Below are positions 24,001-39,000 of a stretch of 64,000 nucleotides of DNA, in pieces. The stretch lies in the NCBI GenBank assembly GCA_963726745.1, contig CAVSDR010000003.1, positions 768,001-832,000 of the forward strand, in the 5' to 3' direction. The stretch is from an uncultured Verrucomicrobiae bacterium (GTDB lineage Bacteria; Verrucomicrobiota; Verrucomicrobiia; Chthoniobacterales; UBA10450). Every line of letters starts with the position of its first letter. Position 1 is the stretch's first letter. The position numbers were made by a program.

Positions 24001-27000
24001 TCGAGCTGCGCGATCCGGTCCGGCAAAGTCGAGAGCGAGACGATGACTCGACGATCGTCCGGCGCGCCTGCGTGGGCGCCGAGCAGGCCGCGGAGGAAGC
24101 TCCGCTGTTGTTGCCCTTTCCAGTGGAACCAAAGCAGCGGGCCGAGCAGACCCGCGAGCGCGCCGGTGAAGATTATTCGGGGCCGCATCGCGTACCTCGT
24201 TGCATCCCGCCGTTCGCATGATTTCCTCTGGCCATCGGCGCGCGCCAAGATGCCGCGCAAAATCGTTTTCATGAAGAAAATCTTTCTCACCGGCGCCAGC
24301 TCCGGCATCGGGCGCGCCACTGCGGAGCTGCTCTGCGCGCAAGGCCACGAAGTCTGGGGGACTTCGCGCGAGCCGGCGCGGCTTCCGGCGCTGGCCCGCC
24401 TCCATCCGGTGCGTCTCGATTTAACCGAGCCCGCTTCGATCGCGGACGCGTGGGAGCGCGCGCGCGCGGAAGCCGGCGGCTTCGAGGTGGTGATCAACAA
24501 CGCCGGCGCCGGGCACTTCGATCCCGCGGCCACGCTTTCCGCGGAAACGCTCGCGCGGCAATTCCAGCTCCTGCTCTTCGGGCAGATCGAAATTAGCCAG
24601 CAAGCTCTGCGCGCCTGGCGCACCCAGCCGCGCGGTTTGTTGATCAATGTGACCTCGCTCGCGGCGCGCCTCCCGATGCCTTTCAGCGCAGCCTACAATG
24701 CGGCCAAAGCCGCCATGTCCGCCTACACCACCACGCTCCAGCTCGAGCTGGCCGGCTCCTCCGTGCGCGTGGTCGACCTGCAACCGGGCGACATCTCCAC
24801 GGATTTTAACGACCACCTCACGCGCGCTCCAGCGCTGGACGCGCAAGACGCGGCCGCGATGCAACGGGCCTGGGAAGTGATCCAGCGGACGATGCAAAAA
24901 GCGCCGCCGCCAGAGTTGGTCGCGCGGGAAATTGCGCGCCTTCTGGAACGGGCGCATCCGCCGGCACGCGTGACCGTGGGCGACCCTTTCCAGCGCACCT
25001 TCGCGCCCGCGATCTTTGCGCTCCTGCCTCCCACCTGGCGCATCTGGGCGCTGCGCCGGCACTACAAACTTTGAGCTCGCCCGCACTCGCACCGACCGAC
25101 GCCGTCATCCTCATGGCCGGCGCCGGGTCGCGCCTGGGCCCGGCCAGCGGAGCCCTGGCCAAGCCGCTCGTCCCCATCGCCGGCCGGCCGTTGATCGCGC
25201 ACACCCTCGATCCTCTCGCCGCCCTCGGCGTGCGCACGCTGCACATCATCACCGGCGCGAATGGCTCGCAGCTCGCCCAGGAAATCGCGCGTCTGCTTCC
25301 GGAAAAGATGGCGCTGAACGCGATCGCGAATCCCGCGTGGGAAAAGCAGAACGGTGTCTCCGTGCTCTGCGCGCAGGGCGCGGTGCGGGCGCCATTTTTC
25401 CTCGCGATGGGCGATCACCTTTTCGACGCGGCCGTTTTCCATCGCCTCCTCCAAGGCGCCGAGCCGGCGCAGCTCAACCTTGCGATCGATCGCAAGGTCG
25501 CCGCCGTCTTCGACCTGGACGACGCCATGAAGGTGGTCACGCGCGACGAGCAGGTGGTCGAAATCGGCAAAACGCTGCCTGTTTATGATGCGATCGACAC
25601 CGGCCTTTTTCTTTGCCCCGATGAGTTGTTCGACTACCTGCGACGCGCGCAACGCGCGGGCGATTGCAGCCTGGCCGATGGCGTGCGCCTGATGGCGGCC
25701 GACCGGAAAGTGCGCGCGGTCGACATCGGTGCCGCCTGGTGGCAGGACGTGGACACGCCCGAGATGTATGCACAGGCCGAGGCGCACTTCCGCGTGCGTC
25801 AGAGCGCGCGCTGAAAGATCCGGTAGGTCTTGTAACGCTGCGCGCCGATCGCCTCGAGGAAGCGATTGATCAGCCGGTTGTTCTCCAGGGTCATGCTCAA
25901 CTCGCCGACCCACCCGCGCTTCACCATTCCCTCCTCGATCACCCGCAGCACGAGCGTTTCCGCGATCCCGAAGCGGCGAAACTTCGGCACCACGCCGAGC
26001 GCGACCAGGCGTCCGCGCTTCAGCCGGCTCTTGTGCCAGAGCAATTTAGCCAGCGGGATGGGCAGGCCATAACTCGTTAGGCGGCCGTTGATTTTTTGAA
26101 AGGCGGCGTTGATGTCGGGCACCGCGAGGATGAATCCGGCCGGCTCGCCGTTCACCTCCGCGACCAGCACCAGCTCCGGCATCGCCAGCGGCTTCAGCTC
26201 CTTCACCAGGTGATCGAACTCCGCTTCGGTGAAGGGGACGAAGCCCCAGTTCTTCTGCCAGGCCTGGTTGTAAACCGCGCGCAGCCCGGCGGCCTCGTCT
26301 TTGATCCGCGAAGATCGATCGGGCGAATCGTGACCTCGCTCTTGTCGCCGAAGCGCGTTGCGATCTTGCGCAGGCGCACCGCTGCTTCCGCGGGCTCGGC
26401 AAACCACCAGGCATACCAATCGATCGCCTTCTCGAAACCCGCGCGCTCGATCAGACCGCGGTAATACGGCGGATTGTGCGGCGTGAGCAGCGTCGGCGGA
26501 AACTCAAAGCCATCGATCAGGAGCGCGCAGACATAATTCGTCGAGTAATCGATCGGCCCCATGATCTCGCGGCGGCCGCGCGCGCGCAGCCAATCGCTCG
26601 CCGCCGCGAAGAGCGCGTCGGCTACCGCCTGGTCATCGATCGACTCAAACAAGCCGAAGCAGCCGACATTCGACCCGTGCTCGGCGTTGTAGTTCGGGTC
26701 GTCGCTCGCCATGATCCGGCCGACGATTTGGCCGCCGCGCCGCGCGAGAAAGAGCTCCGCAGCGCCATGCTCGTAGAAGGGATGCTTCGCGCGATCGAGA
26801 AAATCGCGCCGCTCCAGGATCAACGGCGGGACCCACGCCGGATCGCCGCGGTAGATCTGCCAAGGGAACTCGATGAAGACGTCGCGCTCGGCCTTGGACC
26901 GGACCGGAGTGATTTCGATCTGCGCCACGTCAGCGCCCATCTCGCTGGGCGACGGCACCGGCGCAAGGCGGAAATGCCTTTGCAGCCGCGCGCAAAACTG

Positions 27001-36000: not shown

Positions 36001-39000
36001 TCGCAATCCTCGTCGCCGAAGTCGGACGCCGACGGGGCCGCGCGGCCGAGTTCTTCCCGTTCCGCGTCTCGTTCTTCGCGCCGCTTTGGATCACCGAGCG
36101 CAGCCTGAGCACTTATCTCGCGCTCTACTGGTTCTTCCGGCATGGAGGCTACCCCTTCGGCGATCGCTTCCTTTCGCGAGGCGTCGGGCGCGCCTGGAAA
36201 ATCGGTGGCCGCCTGGCCGCGGCACAGGTCCGGCCGCGCTAAACGAGGGCCGGGACCTTCTCGCTCACCGCTTCCGCTTCCCGGAGCCGGCACCACCAGC
36301 CGCTTTCGGCCAACGCCGGATGCTCAAAAGCTTCCCCGCGGCTTAGCGCCCGCAGCGCCTCGCCCAGGATCGTCGTCCGCACCTGACCGTCGCTCAGGTC
36401 AAAGACTCCGGCTTCATAGTGTTCGTTAGGCTGCGTCACCAGGCTGTCCCAATCGAAGGCGCCGAGAAGCGACCACGCTGTCAGCGCCCGCACTTCAATC
36501 CCCTCGGCCCGGGCCGTGGTTGCGGCTTCCCAGGCCGCCATCAACCAGCGCAGTTGTTCCTCCGGCGCCGCGGCCAAATGCACTTCTGTGAGCGCAATCG
36601 GCCGGCGATAACGCTCGTGCGCTTCGCGAATCGCCCGCTCGAATCCACAACCCACCTCCGCCGCTCGCACCGCCACTTCATCGGCGTAAACTTCAAAGCC
36701 ATTCCTGCCGTGCGTTCGCTCTTGGTAATTCTCGATCTGCTCGTCCAGAAACCGATCGCTGGTCACGTAGTGATTGATCCCGATGATGTCCGGCGGCGAC
36801 AGCTTGTCGGCTAACGAGTCCAACTCCGCCGCCGTGGCGCCGTGCGCGAGCAGATGCGCTCGCAGGGGATGGCCTGGCTGCACCCGGCCACTGAGTAAAT
36901 CCCATCCAAGCCAGCGGCGCTCGTTATTGAAATCCGCCTGGTAACGCAATCGCGGCGTGCTGAAGGTGCGCCCGAGATCGTCGGTCTGCACAAAGAATAG
37001 CCGACGAGTTCACCCGACGGATCGCCCTCATCGCCAGGTCGCTTCCGCGGGCTTGCTGGAGCAGGGCCCGCACGAAAGTCGCCTCGTCACGGCCGTGCGG
37101 AAACCAGTGTCCGTAAAGTCCGCAAAAGCGCGCGGTCGTTACAGGTTCGTTGATCGGCGTGTAGGCGTCGATCCATGGATAACGTTCCGCCACGCGCGCG
37201 GCAAAGGCGGCAAACTTTTCCGGAAACGCCGGGTCCACCAGGCTGGTGTAACGCGGCCCGCTTCCATGGTGCAGCAGGCCGGCAATCGGCCGCAGCCCAA
37301 GTTCCCGCAAGCGCGCGAGGCCAGCGTCCGTCCAGCGCCAGTCGCACTCCTCCGGGGAATCAGGAGCGATAGTTTCCCACAAGATGGGAAATCGCAGCCG
37401 CTGGAGCCCCAGCGCCGCAAAACGCCCGAGATCTTCCAGCGCGCGTTCCCAGTGGCCGGTGCGTTCCAGTTGGTTCGAGAAGCGGTTGCCGACCCGGTTG
37501 ATCGTGCACTCCGCTCCGCCCCAAATCTCCAGCGCGTCCATCGGGTTCTCCGCGTCTGCGCGGAAGCTTCGTTAGGCCGCAGTGATCTCGAGTGCGCGCT
37601 CATCCACGAGCACATCCTCAATGTGCTGCTCGAGCTGCTCGACGATCGATTCCCAGGAATTCTCCTCGGCCAGGGCGATCCCCCGCTCGATCCGCACGGC
37701 GTCGGGATGCGCCGCCGCCTGCGCGCACGCCCGGGTAAAGCTCGCATGATCCGGAGCCACCAGGACGACATCGCTAAATTGCCGCACCACGTCCTGCACC
37801 GGCGTGGAGACAATCGGACGGCCGGTGGCCATGTATTCCAGCGCCTTGGTCGGATTGATAAATCGGGTCGCTTCGTTCATCGCGAACGGCATCAGGCAGA
37901 CATCGAAGCCCCTGGCGTAGCTCGGCAGCTCGGCGTAATCGCGTCCGCCCAGCCAATGGAGATTGGCGCGTTGCGGGAAGCTTTGCGGGTCGACCTTGGT
38001 ATGCGGGCCCACCACGACCACGCTGCCCTTCGTCTCGTCGGCTAATTTGCCTAACAAGTCGTAATCCATCCGCTCATCGACCACCCCGATGTAGCCGAAA
38101 ACGGGCCCGGGGAGGCCTGCCAGGTCCGCCGGCAATTCCGTCAAGGGATCGCGCGCACGGCCGAAGTGATCGTGCTCCACCCCGCAACCGAAGGAATAGC
38201 AGTTTGGGTTCAGGACACGCTTGGCTTCCCAGATCTTCGGGCCGCCGGCAAAGACCACGTCCGCCAAAGCCAGCAACTCGCGTTCGCGGCGGACCAGTTC
38301 CGCCTGCGCGCCGCGGAAAAGCGAGAGCTCATCCATGCAATCGTAGACGATCGCGCGTTGCCCGAGGTGCCCGGCAAAAGCGGTCACCGCCATCGGATCG
38401 TAAAACCACTGCACCGGCGACCGGAAACTCTGCCCGAGCGGCCCAGCGAGCACTGCCTCGACCACGCGCCGGCGTTCGCTATCCACCCAGGCACCATCGC
38501 TCCAGCGCGCGGCCGGAATTTTTGTTTCCAGGACGACGACGTTTGGATAGTCGGCCACTTCACGGAGCACCGTCTCGGAATGCGTAACCTCAGTGGACGG
38601 CGTGGGACCCTCGACGAAAAGGACGCGATGCCGTTGCGATAAACGCGAATGAAACTGCTGCGGCCGCTGCCAGACCCAATCCCAACGCAGATGCGAGTGC
38701 ACGATGATTGGATAATCATTGAGCGCTTCCAGCTCCGTGCCCCATTGCTTCCCATCCCGCTGGCTAATTGATCCCGATATCATGTGCGGGATGATTCGTT
38801 GCGGCCTGCCGATTTGGTTTCCGATATTTCGGTAAAATCAGGCACTACGACTTTTCCTGACGAAGCGCGCGCCCTGCGGTGGAATCACGCCCGCGCAAGG
38901 CGGGAAAGAGTGGCGACCCTAACGGGATTCGAACCCGTGTTACCGCCGTGAAAGGGCGGTGTCCTAGGCCACTGGACGATAGGGTCAGGAAGCGGGCCAA

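Follow-up and report, generated by a model that had tools for sequence, protein, structure and literature searches.

The question raised by the cluster at positions 24250-36242 of the window (the whole stretch of 64,000 nt analysed here) is which lipid its genes would make, and whether this lipid is still made by the source organism, a soil-type verrucomicrobium (its genome is called G000 here). Judging from the sequences, we consider it rather likely that the cluster directs the formation of a phospholipid built on ceramide and bearing a head group of the inositol-phosphate type. Pfam and NCBIfam scans of 24250-36242 recovered the gene set that the survey's finding had described. The features, with coordinates as positions in the window, are as follows:

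21092..23301, + strand, ABC ATPase (21092-21823; ABC_tran, 116 bits) and a fragmented MOP-family flippase-like gene, upstream flank
24250..25074, + strand, classical SDR, candidate 3-keto reductase (adh_short, 131.6 bits)
25071..25814, + strand, IPCT-like nucleotidyltransferase, candidate CTP:inositol-phosphate cytidylyltransferase (g01187; N-half of NF041135, 124.6 bits)
25799..26940, - strand, bCerS-like two-lobed GNAT acyltransferase, frame split by a 1-nt indel near 26308-26323
27021..27891, + strand, predicted head-group CDP-alcohol phosphotransferase (g01190; PF01066, 44 bits; in-frame domain part 27169-27891)
27849..28559, + strand, HAD-family hydrolase, probable phosphatase (g01191; Hydrolase/HAD_2)
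28472..29236, + strand, second nucleotidyltransferase, NTP2 (N-half of g01192; NTP_transf_3, 50.7 bits)
29219..30031, + strand, ATP-grasp enzyme, candidate inositol(-phosphate) kinase (C-half of the 519-aa ORF 28472-30031)
29958..31328, + strand, class-III (omega-type) aminotransferase, AT3 (Aminotran_3, 335 bits), part of a six-gene extended module
31328..32297, + strand, GFO/IDH/MocA oxidoreductase (GFO; in-frame part 31548-32297), split by a 1-nt indel near 31559
32287..33618, - strand, Spt-like alpha-oxoamine synthase (Aminotran_1_2, 197 bits)
35232..36242, + strand, GT2/GT21-like glycosyltransferase (Glyco_transf_21, 25.6 bits; cut-off 21.7)
among the cluster genes at 24250-36242, a DUF1989 gene and a YqcI/YcgG gene

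The Spt-like synthase, the bCerS-like acyltransferase and the SDR constitute a ceramide core that is kept together in relatives. Among solved structures, the Spt-like protein scored highest against Spt (3a2b/8guh, 265 bits), followed by KBL (233) and BioF (201), and a separate, clear KBL (560 bits to KBL) is encoded elsewhere in G000. The gene passes none of the NCBIfam cut-offs for Spt; scores of the Spt, KDSR and IPCT candidates all lie under the equivalog cut-offs. As previously described, the bCerS-like gene is broken by a frameshift, while its orthologue in the relative G013 is an intact ORF of 376 aa (Acetyltransf_1, 47.6 bits), and its N-terminal half used as a query found matches in 29 of the 33 genomes of the genus. 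The best NCBIfam match of the SDR was 3-ketodihydrosphingosine reductase (NF049977, 152.5 bits against a cut-off of 400), and its 3' end overlaps the IPCT-like gene by 4 nt.

To place the cluster among other phyla, one genome per species was scanned for relatives of the phosphotransferase, and among the 584 found, the best 80 loci were inspected within 10 kb on either side, with the phylum taken as stated in the database records. bCerS adjoins Spt in 16 of these best 80 of 584 loci, belonging to Verrucomicrobiota, Acidobacteriota, Gemmatimonadota and Bacteroidota. Within the same best 80, all 12 non-verrucomicrobial loci with the pair carry a gene for a CerR-like epimerase and none an SDR, whereas all four verrucomicrobial loci carry the SDR and none a CerR-like gene; the classical SDR thus occupies the position held by CerR in other phyla. 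A thirteenth locus with a CerR-like gene, L112, contains bCerS without the Spt-bCerS pair. A CerR profile search of G000 gave generic matches only (at most 103 bits) and no clear CerR orthologue.

Two further genes of the survey's finding lie elsewhere in the genome and were recovered (positions along contig C3). The Lipid_DES/FA_desaturase ORF at C3:228211-230010 scored 45.4 bits for Lipid_DES, against a cut-off of 23, and its translation shows three His boxes. Since this DES1-type gene (DES) is the direct neighbour of Spt in three other verrucomicrobial genomes (G014, L052 and L057), its membership in the same biology as the ceramide genes is supported. The fusion of the desaturase to an SDR had been flagged as a possible artefact; in G001 and G032 the two parts are indeed adjacent genes. 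In G032 (93% complete) DES is present, and no orthologue of Spt or bCerS was found with the queries used; G013 has kept the cluster with only a decayed remnant of DES. The MIPS gene at C3:146406-147830 is intact and lies ~645 kb from the cluster.

The IPCT-like protein was closest to the solved inositol-phosphate cytidylyltransferases, i.e., IPCT of A. fulgidus (2xme, 77.3 bits) and IPCT/DIPPS (4mnd, 74.8 bits), followed by an unnamed nucleotidyltransferase (4jd0, 58.5 bits), with 45.8 bits for the best named sugar-phosphate NTP-transferase. Its best NCBIfam match, NF041135 (IPCT/DIPPS), is also matched weakly by the CDP-alcohol phosphotransferase, whose closest relatives in NCBIfam and the PDB are inositol-phosphate transferases and AF2299 (4o6m, 51.5 bits, ahead of PIP synthases). 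The N-terminus of the phosphotransferase lies in another frame, owing to a 1-nt insertion near 27156. In its motif, DSADGQLAR..GRVLDGAIG, Gly stands in for the last of the four Asp residues that are canonical for CDP-alcohol phosphotransferases, a state shared by 65 of the best 80 of 584 loci. Natural fusions join members of this family to an NTP-transferase, GFO, a PfkB kinase or IspD. With NTP2, the cluster encodes two cytidylyltransferase candidates for one transferase, which the proposed pathway does not explain.

HAD, NTP2 and ATP-grasp genes lie within 10 kb of the phosphotransferase homologue in 63, 65 and 69 of the best 80 of 584 loci, respectively, and all three occur together in 59. 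The 519-aa ORF g01192 had been taken for one "second NTP-transferase"; this was rejected, because in each of the four relatives with matches to both halves (G013, G031, G034 and G033) the halves are encoded by two genes in different frames, as they also are in L053 and L056, two other loci from Verrucomicrobiota. The homology of NTP2 to G013 covers 28556-29236. The ATP-grasp half had no match in the Pfam scan; its structural neighbours in the Atlas are ATP-grasp proteins, including natural NTP_transferase fusions, 51% of whose members carry Ins134_P3_kin. Foldseek on its structure model (pLDDT 90.2) retrieved ATP-grasp ligases and PPIP5K2/ITPK1 equally well (E ~1e-13). In Bacteroidota the gene order is NTP2-ATPgrasp-CDPOH-(LPG_synthase_TM)-HAD-MIPS, where CDPOH is the phosphotransferase. 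Judged by this order, the Bacteroides-type set is not g01187, g01190 and g01191, as had been proposed; its counterpart is the phosphotransferase, the HAD hydrolase and g01192 (NTP-transferase plus ATP-grasp). NTP2 corresponds to the "NTP transferase" described for the alternative inositol-lipid cluster of Bacteroides, and the genes in the Bacteroides loci of our scan are ordered as in the alternative cluster of B. vulgatus. In their account of that cluster, Heaver et al. 2022 (PMC9246714) tie it to inositol phosphoceramide in species without BT_1522/23/25.

The presence of AT3 and GFO hints at a head group that is modified, perhaps by amination. AT3 reaches no NCBIfam cut-off, and among solved structures it resembles a generic range of enzymes (GABA and putrescine aminotransferases, racemases); the GFO orthologue of G013 is an intact ORF of 327 aa with both GFO domains, and one natural protein, P0173, is a fusion of the phosphotransferase with GFO. 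AT3 was found in 21 and GFO in 22 of the best 80 of 584 loci.

Gene content, conservation and linkage of the cluster could be observed directly. The order SDR-IPCT-bCerS-CDPOH-HAD-NTP2-ATPgrasp-AT3-GFO-Spt is colinear with G000 in G013 and in G034, which belongs to a different genus; G033 shares this order, except that the phosphotransferase copy there is divergent (28% identity) and encoded on the opposite strand. The run from SDR to Spt also occurs in the verrucomicrobial loci L053, L056 and L057. Minimal verrucomicrobial clusters (G014 and L052) comprise the SDR, IPCT-like, bCerS, CDPOH and Spt genes with DES and FA_hydroxylase, and are without HAD. The GT21 gene, previously counted as a member, adjoins the cluster in G000 only: it is missing from the cluster loci of all six relatives examined, was not found in G013, G014, G024, G031, G033 and G034, and in G002, G036, G021 and G028 its orthologues are located either on a different contig or, where the contig is the same, at a distance of 590 kb. 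The ABC ATPase and flippase-like genes flank the cluster in G014 too, and may serve lipid export; in tblastn, the upstream flank was matched by two G014 proteins, the ABC protein at 79% identity and Polysacc_synt at 44.5% over 382 aa, the latter in two frames.

Among the best 80 of 584 loci, the module occurs in Bacteroidota, Ignavibacteria, Gemmatimonadota, Acidobacteriota and Verrucomicrobiota. MIPS stands beside the transferase in 40 of the 80 (31 of 49 in Bacteroidota, 8 of 8 in Ignavibacteria/Kapabacteria, 0 of 4 in Verrucomicrobiota). In Parapedobacter luteus DSM 22899, the genes Spt-bCerS-CerR-like epimerase-MIPS-DUF5686-NTP-transferase-ATP-grasp-CDP-OH_P_transf-LPG_synthase_TM-HAD-PfkB-DUF4833-FA_hydroxylase follow one another on one strand. 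The claim of a first home outside Bacteroidota holds for the published literature only, since 31 of these best 80 loci come from other phyla. Overall, the survey's reading stood for the ceramide core, the CDP-alcohol module and the desaturase, and was revised for module membership, GT21 and the "first" claim.

In the proposed pathway, every chemical step of which we infer, Spt would condense serine with an acyl thioester, the bCerS-like GNAT would attach the N-acyl chain, and the classical SDR, instead of CerR, would reduce the 3-keto group. The DES1-type desaturase may introduce a 4,5 double bond, or a 4-hydroxyl. MIPS would be the source of inositol phosphate, from which the IPCT-like protein and/or NTP2 may form a CDP-activated head group, and the membrane CDP-alcohol phosphotransferase would attach the phospho-head group to ceramide at its 1-OH, resembling the Kennedy pathway. 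GFO and AT3 would most probably exchange one hydroxyl of the ring for an amine. Both "true sphingosine" and "inositol phosphate" are predictions. ATP-grasp and HAD may act as a kinase/phosphatase pair on a second phosphate of the head group, comparable to the intermediate PIP in the pathway of mycobacteria and B. thetaiotaomicron; direct Kennedy-type transfer leaves the need for both enzymes unexplained.

The cluster might also be a pseudogene array whose lipid is no longer made. Four frame anomalies were detected, each a single-base indel: the bCerS split and, in addition to those previously described, splits of the phosphotransferase and GFO genes, with NTP2 and ATP-grasp fused at a junction that reads T6 and then AG. 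With three genes split and two others fused, the ~10 kb of the cluster are somewhat denser in such events than the rest (3-4 events per ~10 kb in the cluster against ~7 per ~64 kb of other coding sequence compared), the phosphotransferase insertion lies outside any homopolymer, and single genes of the system can decay, as DES has in G013. None of the public contigs compared with the cluster region spans the indel sites. Against this, of 52 G013 ORFs with a G000 orthologue, nine are split across frames, three of them cluster genes and the other six among 49 genes elsewhere; because those other genes are split likewise, the anomalies are probably assembly errors. Colinear split HSPs occur throughout G000, including genes of 792-1171 aa, and other few-contig assemblies have like splits (bCerS in G002, G014 and G028; AT3 and Spt in G033). 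GC3 periodicity is retained on both sides of the indels, stop-rich decay is absent, and the genes broken in G000 are intact in relatives. Assembly indels are most likely, and we consider real decay unlikely.

With the genes taken as functional, the product itself can be read differently. A different phospho-sphingolipid, carrying, e.g., an amino-sugar alcohol or aminocyclitol made by GFO and the aminotransferase, seems somewhat unlikely: MIPS is unlinked in all four verrucomicrobial loci, AT3 and GFO lack a specific family assignment, and the fusions to IspD-type and PfkB-type enzymes suggest varied head groups across the family, but MIPS is intact in G000 and adjoins 7 of the 19 six-gene loci (those with AT3 and GFO) among the best 80 of 584, and the closest solved relatives of the IPCT-like protein handle inositol phosphate. 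The lipid acceptor of the transferase could be diacylglycerol, a point against the ceramide reading. In the corresponding route, which their text on the B. vulgatus-type cluster proposes, Heaver et al. (PMC9246714) have CDP-inositol and diacylglycerol yield phosphatidylinositol, with HAD suggested for the further transfer of phosphoinositol to ceramide. The 64 of the best 80 of 584 loci without Spt and bCerS within 10 kb fit a module not strictly bound to sphingolipids, although in many of these species, Bacteroides among them, sphingolipids are made by genes that lie elsewhere. However, no HAD hydrolase is known to transfer phosphoinositol, the Pfam and NCBIfam scans of the cluster showed no gene of AUR1/PAP2 type, and in the minimal clusters, without HAD, the transferase is the sole candidate for joining head group and ceramide; we regard this route as improbable. 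That the IPCT-like protein and the transferase make a soluble di-myo-inositol-phosphate-type solute, with HAD as last phosphatase and the ceramide genes merely nearby, is very unlikely. The solute pathway of archaea and Aquifex does consist of IPCT, DIPPS and a phosphatase, and NF041135 matches both proteins, the transferase weakly, but the Spt-bCerS linkage recurs across four phyla, a flippase-like LPG_synthase_TM gene lies within the module in 36 of the best 80 of 584 loci, and PMC9246714 connects the counterpart in Bacteroides with a lipid phenotype.

We therefore retain the reading of a ceramide-based phospholipid, whose destination is probably the outer membrane, and whose head-group module is common to many bacterial phyla.

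Scans of high-GC3 open reading frames (ORFs) with Pfam and NCBIfam models yielded the following map of the cluster and of the related genes on the same contig, with coordinates along the window unless a contig is named.

24250-25074 (+): classical SDR
25071-25814 (+): IPCT-like nucleotidyltransferase (g01187), overlapping the SDR by 4 nt
25799-26940 (−): bCerS-like GNAT protein, putative ceramide synthase
27021-27891 (+): CDP-alcohol phosphotransferase (CDPOH, g01190)
27849-28559 (+): HAD hydrolase (HAD, g01191)
28472-30031 (+): single ORF (g01192) with an NTP_transf_3 domain (NTP2) and a C-terminal half without family assignment in the Pfam/NCBIfam map
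29958-31328 (+): class-III aminotransferase (AT3)
31328-32297 (+): GFO/IDH/MocA oxidoreductase (GFO)
32287-33618 (−): Spt-like alpha-oxoamine synthase
33779-35105 (−): DUF1989 gene and YqcI/YcgG gene, between Spt and GT21
35232-36242 (+): GT2/GT21 gene
C3:146406-147830: MIPS, on the same contig as the cluster, about 645 kb away
elsewhere on the cluster's contig: 599-aa ORF with adh_short, Lipid_DES and FA_desaturase domains (the last two forming the desaturase, DES)

These scans and the ORF map bear out the gene content described in the survey's finding, with MIPS and the desaturase located away from the cluster. Only close Chthoniobacterales relatives, at 60% identity at least, were among the matches listed in a protein search with the transferase.

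The Spt-like protein has the PLP-dependent Aminotran_1_2 fold (PF00155, 197 bits). Compared with solved proteins, it was nearest to Spt (3a2b/8guh, 265 bits), followed by KBL (233), ALAS (212) and BioF (201), a modest margin of 32 bits over KBL. It fell below every NCBIfam Spt cut-off (NF047600, 318.7 vs 640 bits; NF047599, 303.6 vs 500; NF047603, 253.4 vs 670) and scored 344.5 bits on the NCBIfam bioF model (cut-off 426). The source genome also encodes a separate KBL paralogue (560 bits to KBL) and a third, frameshifted paralogue on contig C5. Due to the small KBL margin, the sub-cut-off scores and these paralogues, the Spt assignment rests mainly on a kept linkage, since Spt and bCerS are adjacent in the relatives and at 16 of 80 loci compared across phyla. 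No Pfam or NCBIfam model hits the bCerS family, for which none exists. The orthologue in the related genome G013 is a 376-aa GNAT-fold protein (Acetyltransf_1, 47.6 bits) encoded with Spt, and a query with the N-terminal half of bCerS matched 45 of 61 genomes, the source genome included (29/33 in the genus), mostly as intact proteins of 380-400 aa. Here and below, tallies of bCerS, DES and GT21 orthologues include the unpublished genomes G001, G008, G030 and G035.

As in Caulobacter crescentus, where the pathway comprises Spt, bCerS and CerR, a soluble-type Spt adjoins a GNAT-type acyltransferase of about 375 aa, and this pair is kept across phyla. Unlike C. crescentus, the cluster contains a classical SDR and no clear orthologue of CerR, which belongs to the NDUFA9-like epimerase family. 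A tblastn search of the source genome found no CerR orthologue (best 28% identity), and a profile built from 13 CerR-like sequences of Spt/bCerS loci returned 19 generic matches there, the best at 103 bits and none near the cluster. All four verrucomicrobial Spt+bCerS loci carry the SDR and none a CerR-like gene; all 12 non-verrucomicrobial ones carry a CerR-like gene and no SDR, and a 13th CerR-like locus (L112) has bCerS only. Based on this complementary distribution, we read the classical SDR as a putative non-orthologous replacement of CerR. One passage of a published account states that Spt, bCerS and CerR are the core enzymes of all sphingolipid-making bacteria (PMC11087976). The best NCBIfam match of the SDR is the Bacteroides thetaiotaomicron KDSR (BT_0972; NF049977); unlike that enzyme, it reaches 152.5 bits vs a cut-off of 400, barely over generic SDR families (152.3). 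A gene for an FA_hydroxylase of the SUR2/FA2H superfamily lies inside the sphingolipid cluster at L049 (the locus of the related genome G014; 13030-13752), L052, L053, L057 and L071 (14105-14743). Such genes occur at 8 of the 80 loci, in relatives and in other phyla, and no homologue was found by tblastn in the source genome.

In the source genome, a single-base indel splits each of bCerS, CDPOH and GFO; the bCerS frame is broken by a 1-nt indel near 26308-26323, probably an assembly error. To gauge whether the breaks point to decay, we used as a reference G013, a 100-contig relative with an intact cluster, from which stop-to-stop ORFs of at least 200 aa were taken in eight 20-kb stretches of contig C46 and in the 18-kb cluster locus. 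The GC3 filter reduced these 205 ORFs to 63, of which 52 had a best match of at least 50% identity in the source genome. Nine of the 52 orthologues are split across frames there, three in the cluster and 6/49 elsewhere, the latter including genes of 792, 956, 1061 and 1171 aa. Examples of single-base breaks in long conserved genes lie at C6:869832-873033, C6:902282-904574 and C3:741713-744410. Similar splits of the same cluster genes were detected in other few-contig assemblies (G002, G014, G028 and G033). Because splits occur genome-wide and in these other assemblies, the source genome is an indel-prone assembly and its cluster is probably intact in the cell. Real decay keeps a small probability, since the indel density in the cluster is somewhat above that of the rest of the genome and public contigs do not cover the sites: in three soil-metagenome runs of one study, 0.15, 0.06 and ~0 of the sampled words were present, and the short Logan contigs from these runs bridge no frameshift site and are uninformative on indels. 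The chance of indel errors should be kept in mind whenever single genes of this assembly are interpreted.

Both apparent gene fusions in this assembly are doubtful. In G013, G031, G033 and G034 and at L053 and L056, different frames encode the NTP-transferase and the gene after it, with a 4-nt overlap in G013. A T6 run and then AG form the corresponding junction in the source genome, where one extra T would create a TAG stop. Genuine fusions of an NTP-transferase with an ATP-grasp protein, of about 527 aa, are known in Bacteroidota (Atlas clusters). For the SDR-DES fusion, the survey's suspicion of an indel artefact gained support from a two-gene arrangement in the unpublished genome G001 (different frames with a stop between) and in G032 (a stop, then ATG). 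The junction in the source genome is located in runs of T4C3T3C4 and A6, and a TAG in another frame precedes the DES ATG by 12 nt.

CDPOH matches PF01066 with 44 bits (cut-off 22) and contains the motif DxxDGxxAR...GxxxD; D84, D87, G88, A91, R92, G101 and D105 (7/8 signature positions) are invariant in 29 sequences. The canonical motif is quoted in one passage of PMC9246714 as ending in ...GxxxDxxxD. The fourth Asp is Gly in the source genome, in G013 and at 65 of the 80 loci; the others have Asp (11), Thr (2) or Ser (1), and at one the motif was not found. Deviation from the canonical motif is the norm in the family, Bacteroides members included. Among solved proteins, CDPOH matches AF2299 and PIP synthases best and DIPPS more weakly. 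The IPCT-like protein is nearest to IPCT among solved proteins (2xme, 4mnd), IPCT entries topping its PDB matches at 77 and 75 bits, ahead of an unnamed nucleotidyltransferase (58.5) and the best named sugar-phosphate NTP-transferase (45.8 bits). It scored 124.6 bits on NF041135, vs a cut-off of 580 made for the bifunctional protein. As in the archaeal/Aquifex IPCT/DIPPS solute route, a CDP-alcohol transferase and a phosphatase-type gene accompany it. Unlike in that route, which leads through CDP-inositol to di-myo-inositol phosphate, the IPCT-like protein and the transferase have separate genes, set in a context of lipid synthesis, and the transferase resembles DIPPS less than it does AF2299 and PIP synthases. 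For AT3 and GFO, PDB and NCBIfam searches gave generic matches only and no specific substrate.

The C-terminal half of g01192 was characterized by its fold. Its counterpart in G013 has a confident Atlas model, the structural neighbours of which are ATP-grasp proteins. Some of these neighbours are fused to NTP_transferase, one such cluster having Ins134_P3_kin in 51% of its members; in another neighbour cluster, of 601 aa, all members contain CDP-OH_P_transf and 30% an NTP_transferase domain. Our own model, from a 17-sequence alignment, reached a pLDDT of 90.2, and the modelled structures make the ATP-grasp fold certain. A sequence search of the PDB gave PsnB as the sole match (E = 0.027), and the NCBIfam match was RimK at 15 bits. 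Foldseek against the PDB matched ATP-grasp ligases (PsnB, Ddl, ArgX/LysX, RimK) and inositol-phosphate kinases (PPIP5K2, ZmITPK1), all with E ~1e-13; equal on both sides, these values do not separate a kinase from a ligase.

Our search for transferase relatives among 1.84 billion representative proteins identified 2779, including natural CDPOH fusions to GFO, NTP-transferase, PfkB kinase and IspD. A one-genome-per-species scan with a 10-sequence transferase alignment gave 584 relatives, and the best 80 loci were analysed over +/-10 kb, a gene being counted as present at a tblastn E of 1e-8 or better with a query cover of at least 0.5. Based on record titles, these best 80 of 584 comprise 49 Bacteroidota, 8 Ignavibacteria/Kapabacteria, 7 Gemmatimonadota, 4 Acidobacteriota, 4 Verrucomicrobiota, 3 Elusimicrobiota and 5 others or doubtful labels. 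The labels of L054 and L059 (both 'uncultured Bifidobacterium sp.'), L066 and L130 look at odds with the content and were treated as doubtful; these loci bear Gram-negative-type Spt/bCerS/CerR clusters, one of them in a 6.7-Mb genome.

Genes within +/-10 kb of CDPOH at the best 80 of 584 loci
HAD: 63/80
NTP2: 65/80
ATP-grasp: 69/80
HAD, NTP2 and ATP-grasp jointly: 59/80
AT3: 21/80
GFO: 22/80
All six genes: 19/80
MIPS: 40/80 (31/49 Bacteroidota, 8/8 Ignavibacteria/Kapabacteria, 7/19 six-gene loci)
Spt and bCerS: 16/80

MIPS was beside none of the four verrucomicrobial module loci within the same +/-10 kb. G013 and G034, the latter a member of another genus, keep the whole run from SDR to Spt colinear. 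The order is also kept in G033, where a divergent CDPOH copy lies on the opposite strand; in G031 the run is rearranged. A minimal form with SDR, IPCT-like gene, bCerS, a divergent CDPOH and Spt, lacking HAD, NTP2, ATP-grasp, AT3 and GFO, is present in G024, G036 and G014 and at L052.

NTP2, ATP-grasp, CDPOH, (LPG_synthase_TM), HAD and MIPS follow one another in this order in Bacteroides, Prevotellaceae and Sphingobacterium. The clearest locus is that of Parapedobacter luteus DSM 22899, where Spt, bCerS, a CerR-like epimerase-family reductase, MIPS and CarbopepD_reg/DUF5686 are followed on one strand by NTP-transferase, ATP-grasp, CDP-OH_P_transf, LPG_synthase_TM, HAD, PfkB, DUF4833 and FA_hydroxylase. 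Judged by its gene content, this locus ties the module to ceramide and inositol phosphate together. The arrangement in Bacteroides, Prevotellaceae and Sphingobacterium corresponds to the 'alternative inositol lipid cluster' of B. vulgatus type from the work of Heaver et al. 2022, who surveyed 162 Bacteroidetes species (PMC9246714); the proteins of the Bacteroides/Prevotellaceae loci share 28-33% identity with the verrucomicrobial ones. The sections of that paper on the cluster name an NTP transferase (BVU_RS13095), a CDP-alcohol phosphatidyltransferase (BVU_RS13105) and a HAD protein (BVU_RS13115), note a lysyl-PG-synthase-like neighbour gene, call the functions unconfirmed and report inositol phosphoceramide in species having just the alternative cluster (PMC9246714). 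The term 'ATP-grasp' is absent from the text of PMC9246714, and the locus-tag spacing suggests that ATP-grasp is the unnamed gene between the NTP transferase and the phosphatidyltransferase.

The source genome shares the NTP transferase, CDP-alcohol transferase and HAD of the Bacteroides cluster, with ATP-grasp as the fourth constant member. It differs in that the module lies among Spt, bCerS and SDR, is joined by AT3, GFO and the IPCT-like gene, and is unlinked to MIPS. The locus comparison thus assigns the place of the Bacteroides cluster to g01190, g01191 and g01192 and not to g01187. The survey's description of a first home outside Bacteroidota stands for the literature, where we found the module described nowhere else, and does not stand for the genomes, in which it is common outside that phylum. 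Our literature search found no follow-up on the alternative cluster or on an ATP-grasp partner.

The desaturase resembles eukaryotic DES1/DEGS in having an N-terminal Lipid_DES domain (PF08557, 45.4 and 41 bits, cut-off 23), an FA_desaturase domain (PF00487, 100.3 bits) and three His boxes, HDATH, HLQHH and HNEHH, which we take to be the DES1 pattern. Unlike the eukaryotic enzymes, it has a bacterial host and its gene directly adjoins Spt in three verrucomicrobial genomes (G014 and those of L052 and L057), with a predicted delta4 role. In G014 the order is DES, Spt, CDPOH, FA_hydroxylase and bCerS. Of 34 genus genomes, 11 have an orthologue of about 70% identity or more, counting the source genome and a fragmented copy in G028; none was found in 27 genomes of other genera (best at most 41% identity, mostly 23-28%). 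Most assemblies have DES as a stand-alone ORF of 328-418 aa, and in the nearest relatives of the source genome an SDR gene precedes it. G032 (93% complete) has SDR and DES, with Spt and bCerS orthologues not found, and G013 has the full cluster but, behind its intact SDR, only a DES remnant riddled with stops; these two patterns speak against a strict tie of DES to the ceramide cluster. In other phyla, DES was found in only one of five genomes reached through loci with Spt and the module, namely that of L054, which has two copies (42-44% identity), one of them about 20 kb from the cluster on what is probably the same contig. The nearest Atlas clusters are bacterial (Pseudomonadota and Gemmatimonadota), with Lipid_DES in 28-70% of members. 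DEGS1 is classed as 'early eukaryotic' in Table 1 of a review from 2026 (PMC12993136), and our literature search found no paper on a bacterial DES1-type enzyme.

The survey had also counted a ceramide-glucosyltransferase-like GT21 as a cluster member. The gene matches PF13506 weakly (25.6 bits, cut-off 21.7), no better than generic GT2 (27.1). DUF1989, YqcI and GT21 lie beside the cluster in none of six relatives. GT21 orthologues occur in 19 of 61 genomes, the source genome included; in G002, G036, G021 and G028 they are on other contigs or 590 kb off on the same contig, and none was found in G013, G014, G024, G031, G033 and G034. The unpublished G030 (79% complete) is the sole case of GT21 where no Spt orthologue was found. 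Being unlinked or absent in relatives, GT21 is not part of the system.

Several neighbouring genes were recorded. Within 33779-35105 (−), the YqcI/YcgG gene matches NF041366, the heme-dependent N-hydroxylase GntA (260.8 bits, cut-off 145), and the DUF1989 gene is urea-amidolyase-associated-like. An atypical second CDP-OH_P_transf protein of 364 aa is encoded at 18975-20066 (−); like those of CDPOH, its best NCBIfam matches are inositol-phosphate transferases, namely archaetidylinositol phosphate synthase (47 bits) and IPCT/DIPPS (40 bits), its N-terminal ~160 aa have no family, and its motif DGLDGKQAR..GKLEHWFD departs from the canonical spacing. Divergent beside it, at 20021-21088 (+), lies a gene for a radical SAM protein that may be another lipid-modifying enzyme, with the tetraether lipid synthase Tes as best NCBIfam match (69 bits, cut-off 450). 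The radical SAM protein that the survey placed near bCerS and DES in G014 was not seen among the scanned ORFs of that locus. In the source genome (39043-43384), G013 and G014, the cluster has at its flank the genes for WaaA (Kdo transferase), a protein of the AsmA family and a YegS/DAGK_cat lipid kinase. This flank is an outer-membrane lipid neighbourhood, and the lipid kinase could be a candidate ceramide kinase.

We consider a Kennedy-type attachment the somewhat likelier course: Spt, bCerS and SDR would supply ceramide, onto which CDPOH would pass a CDP-activated, inositol-type head group. By analogy with the PIP route, our preferred reading of the constant ATP-grasp/HAD pair is a putative kinase and phosphatase acting around a doubly phosphorylated head group, in which the MIPS-derived phosphate would be kept during transfer and taken off afterwards. 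GFO and AT3 would oxidize and then transaminate a ring hydroxyl. The cluster contains two predicted cytidylyltransferases and one transferase. Joined together, these steps would amount to a widespread bacterial pathway to phospho-inositol sphingolipids via a CDP-activated head group, formed by a cytidylyltransferase, an ATP-grasp inositol-phosphate kinase, a CDPOH without the fourth Asp and a HAD phosphatase. In the six-gene version of Verrucomicrobiota, Gemmatimonadota, Acidobacteriota and Ignavibacteria, GFO and AT3 would convert inositol to amino-inositol, and in the same verrucomicrobia the DES1-type enzyme beside Spt would yield a 4-unsaturated, sphingosine-type ceramide. This combined account is tentative and, taken as a whole, rather unlikely to hold.

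Bacterial sphingolipids are widespread, and to our knowledge the attachment of their head groups is understood only in B. thetaiotaomicron and Caulobacter. The 'alternative' inositol-lipid genes of gut Bacteroides and Prevotella form part of a four-gene module with an overlooked ATP-grasp partner, common to at least five phyla. Cultured, tractable Bacteroidota (Parapedobacter, Larkinella) have Spt, bCerS, CerR and MIPS on the same strand as the module, which makes the pathway directly testable. The oxidoreductase/aminotransferase extension of the soil lineages predicts a new head group; if the combined account is true, it would be zwitterionic and new to description, and a desaturation step held to be a eukaryotic invention would be in regular bacterial use. 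The DES1-type gene in bacterial sphingolipid clusters, together with the SDR in place of CerR, would bear on how much of the ceramide pathway bacteria and eukaryotes share and how much is convergent.
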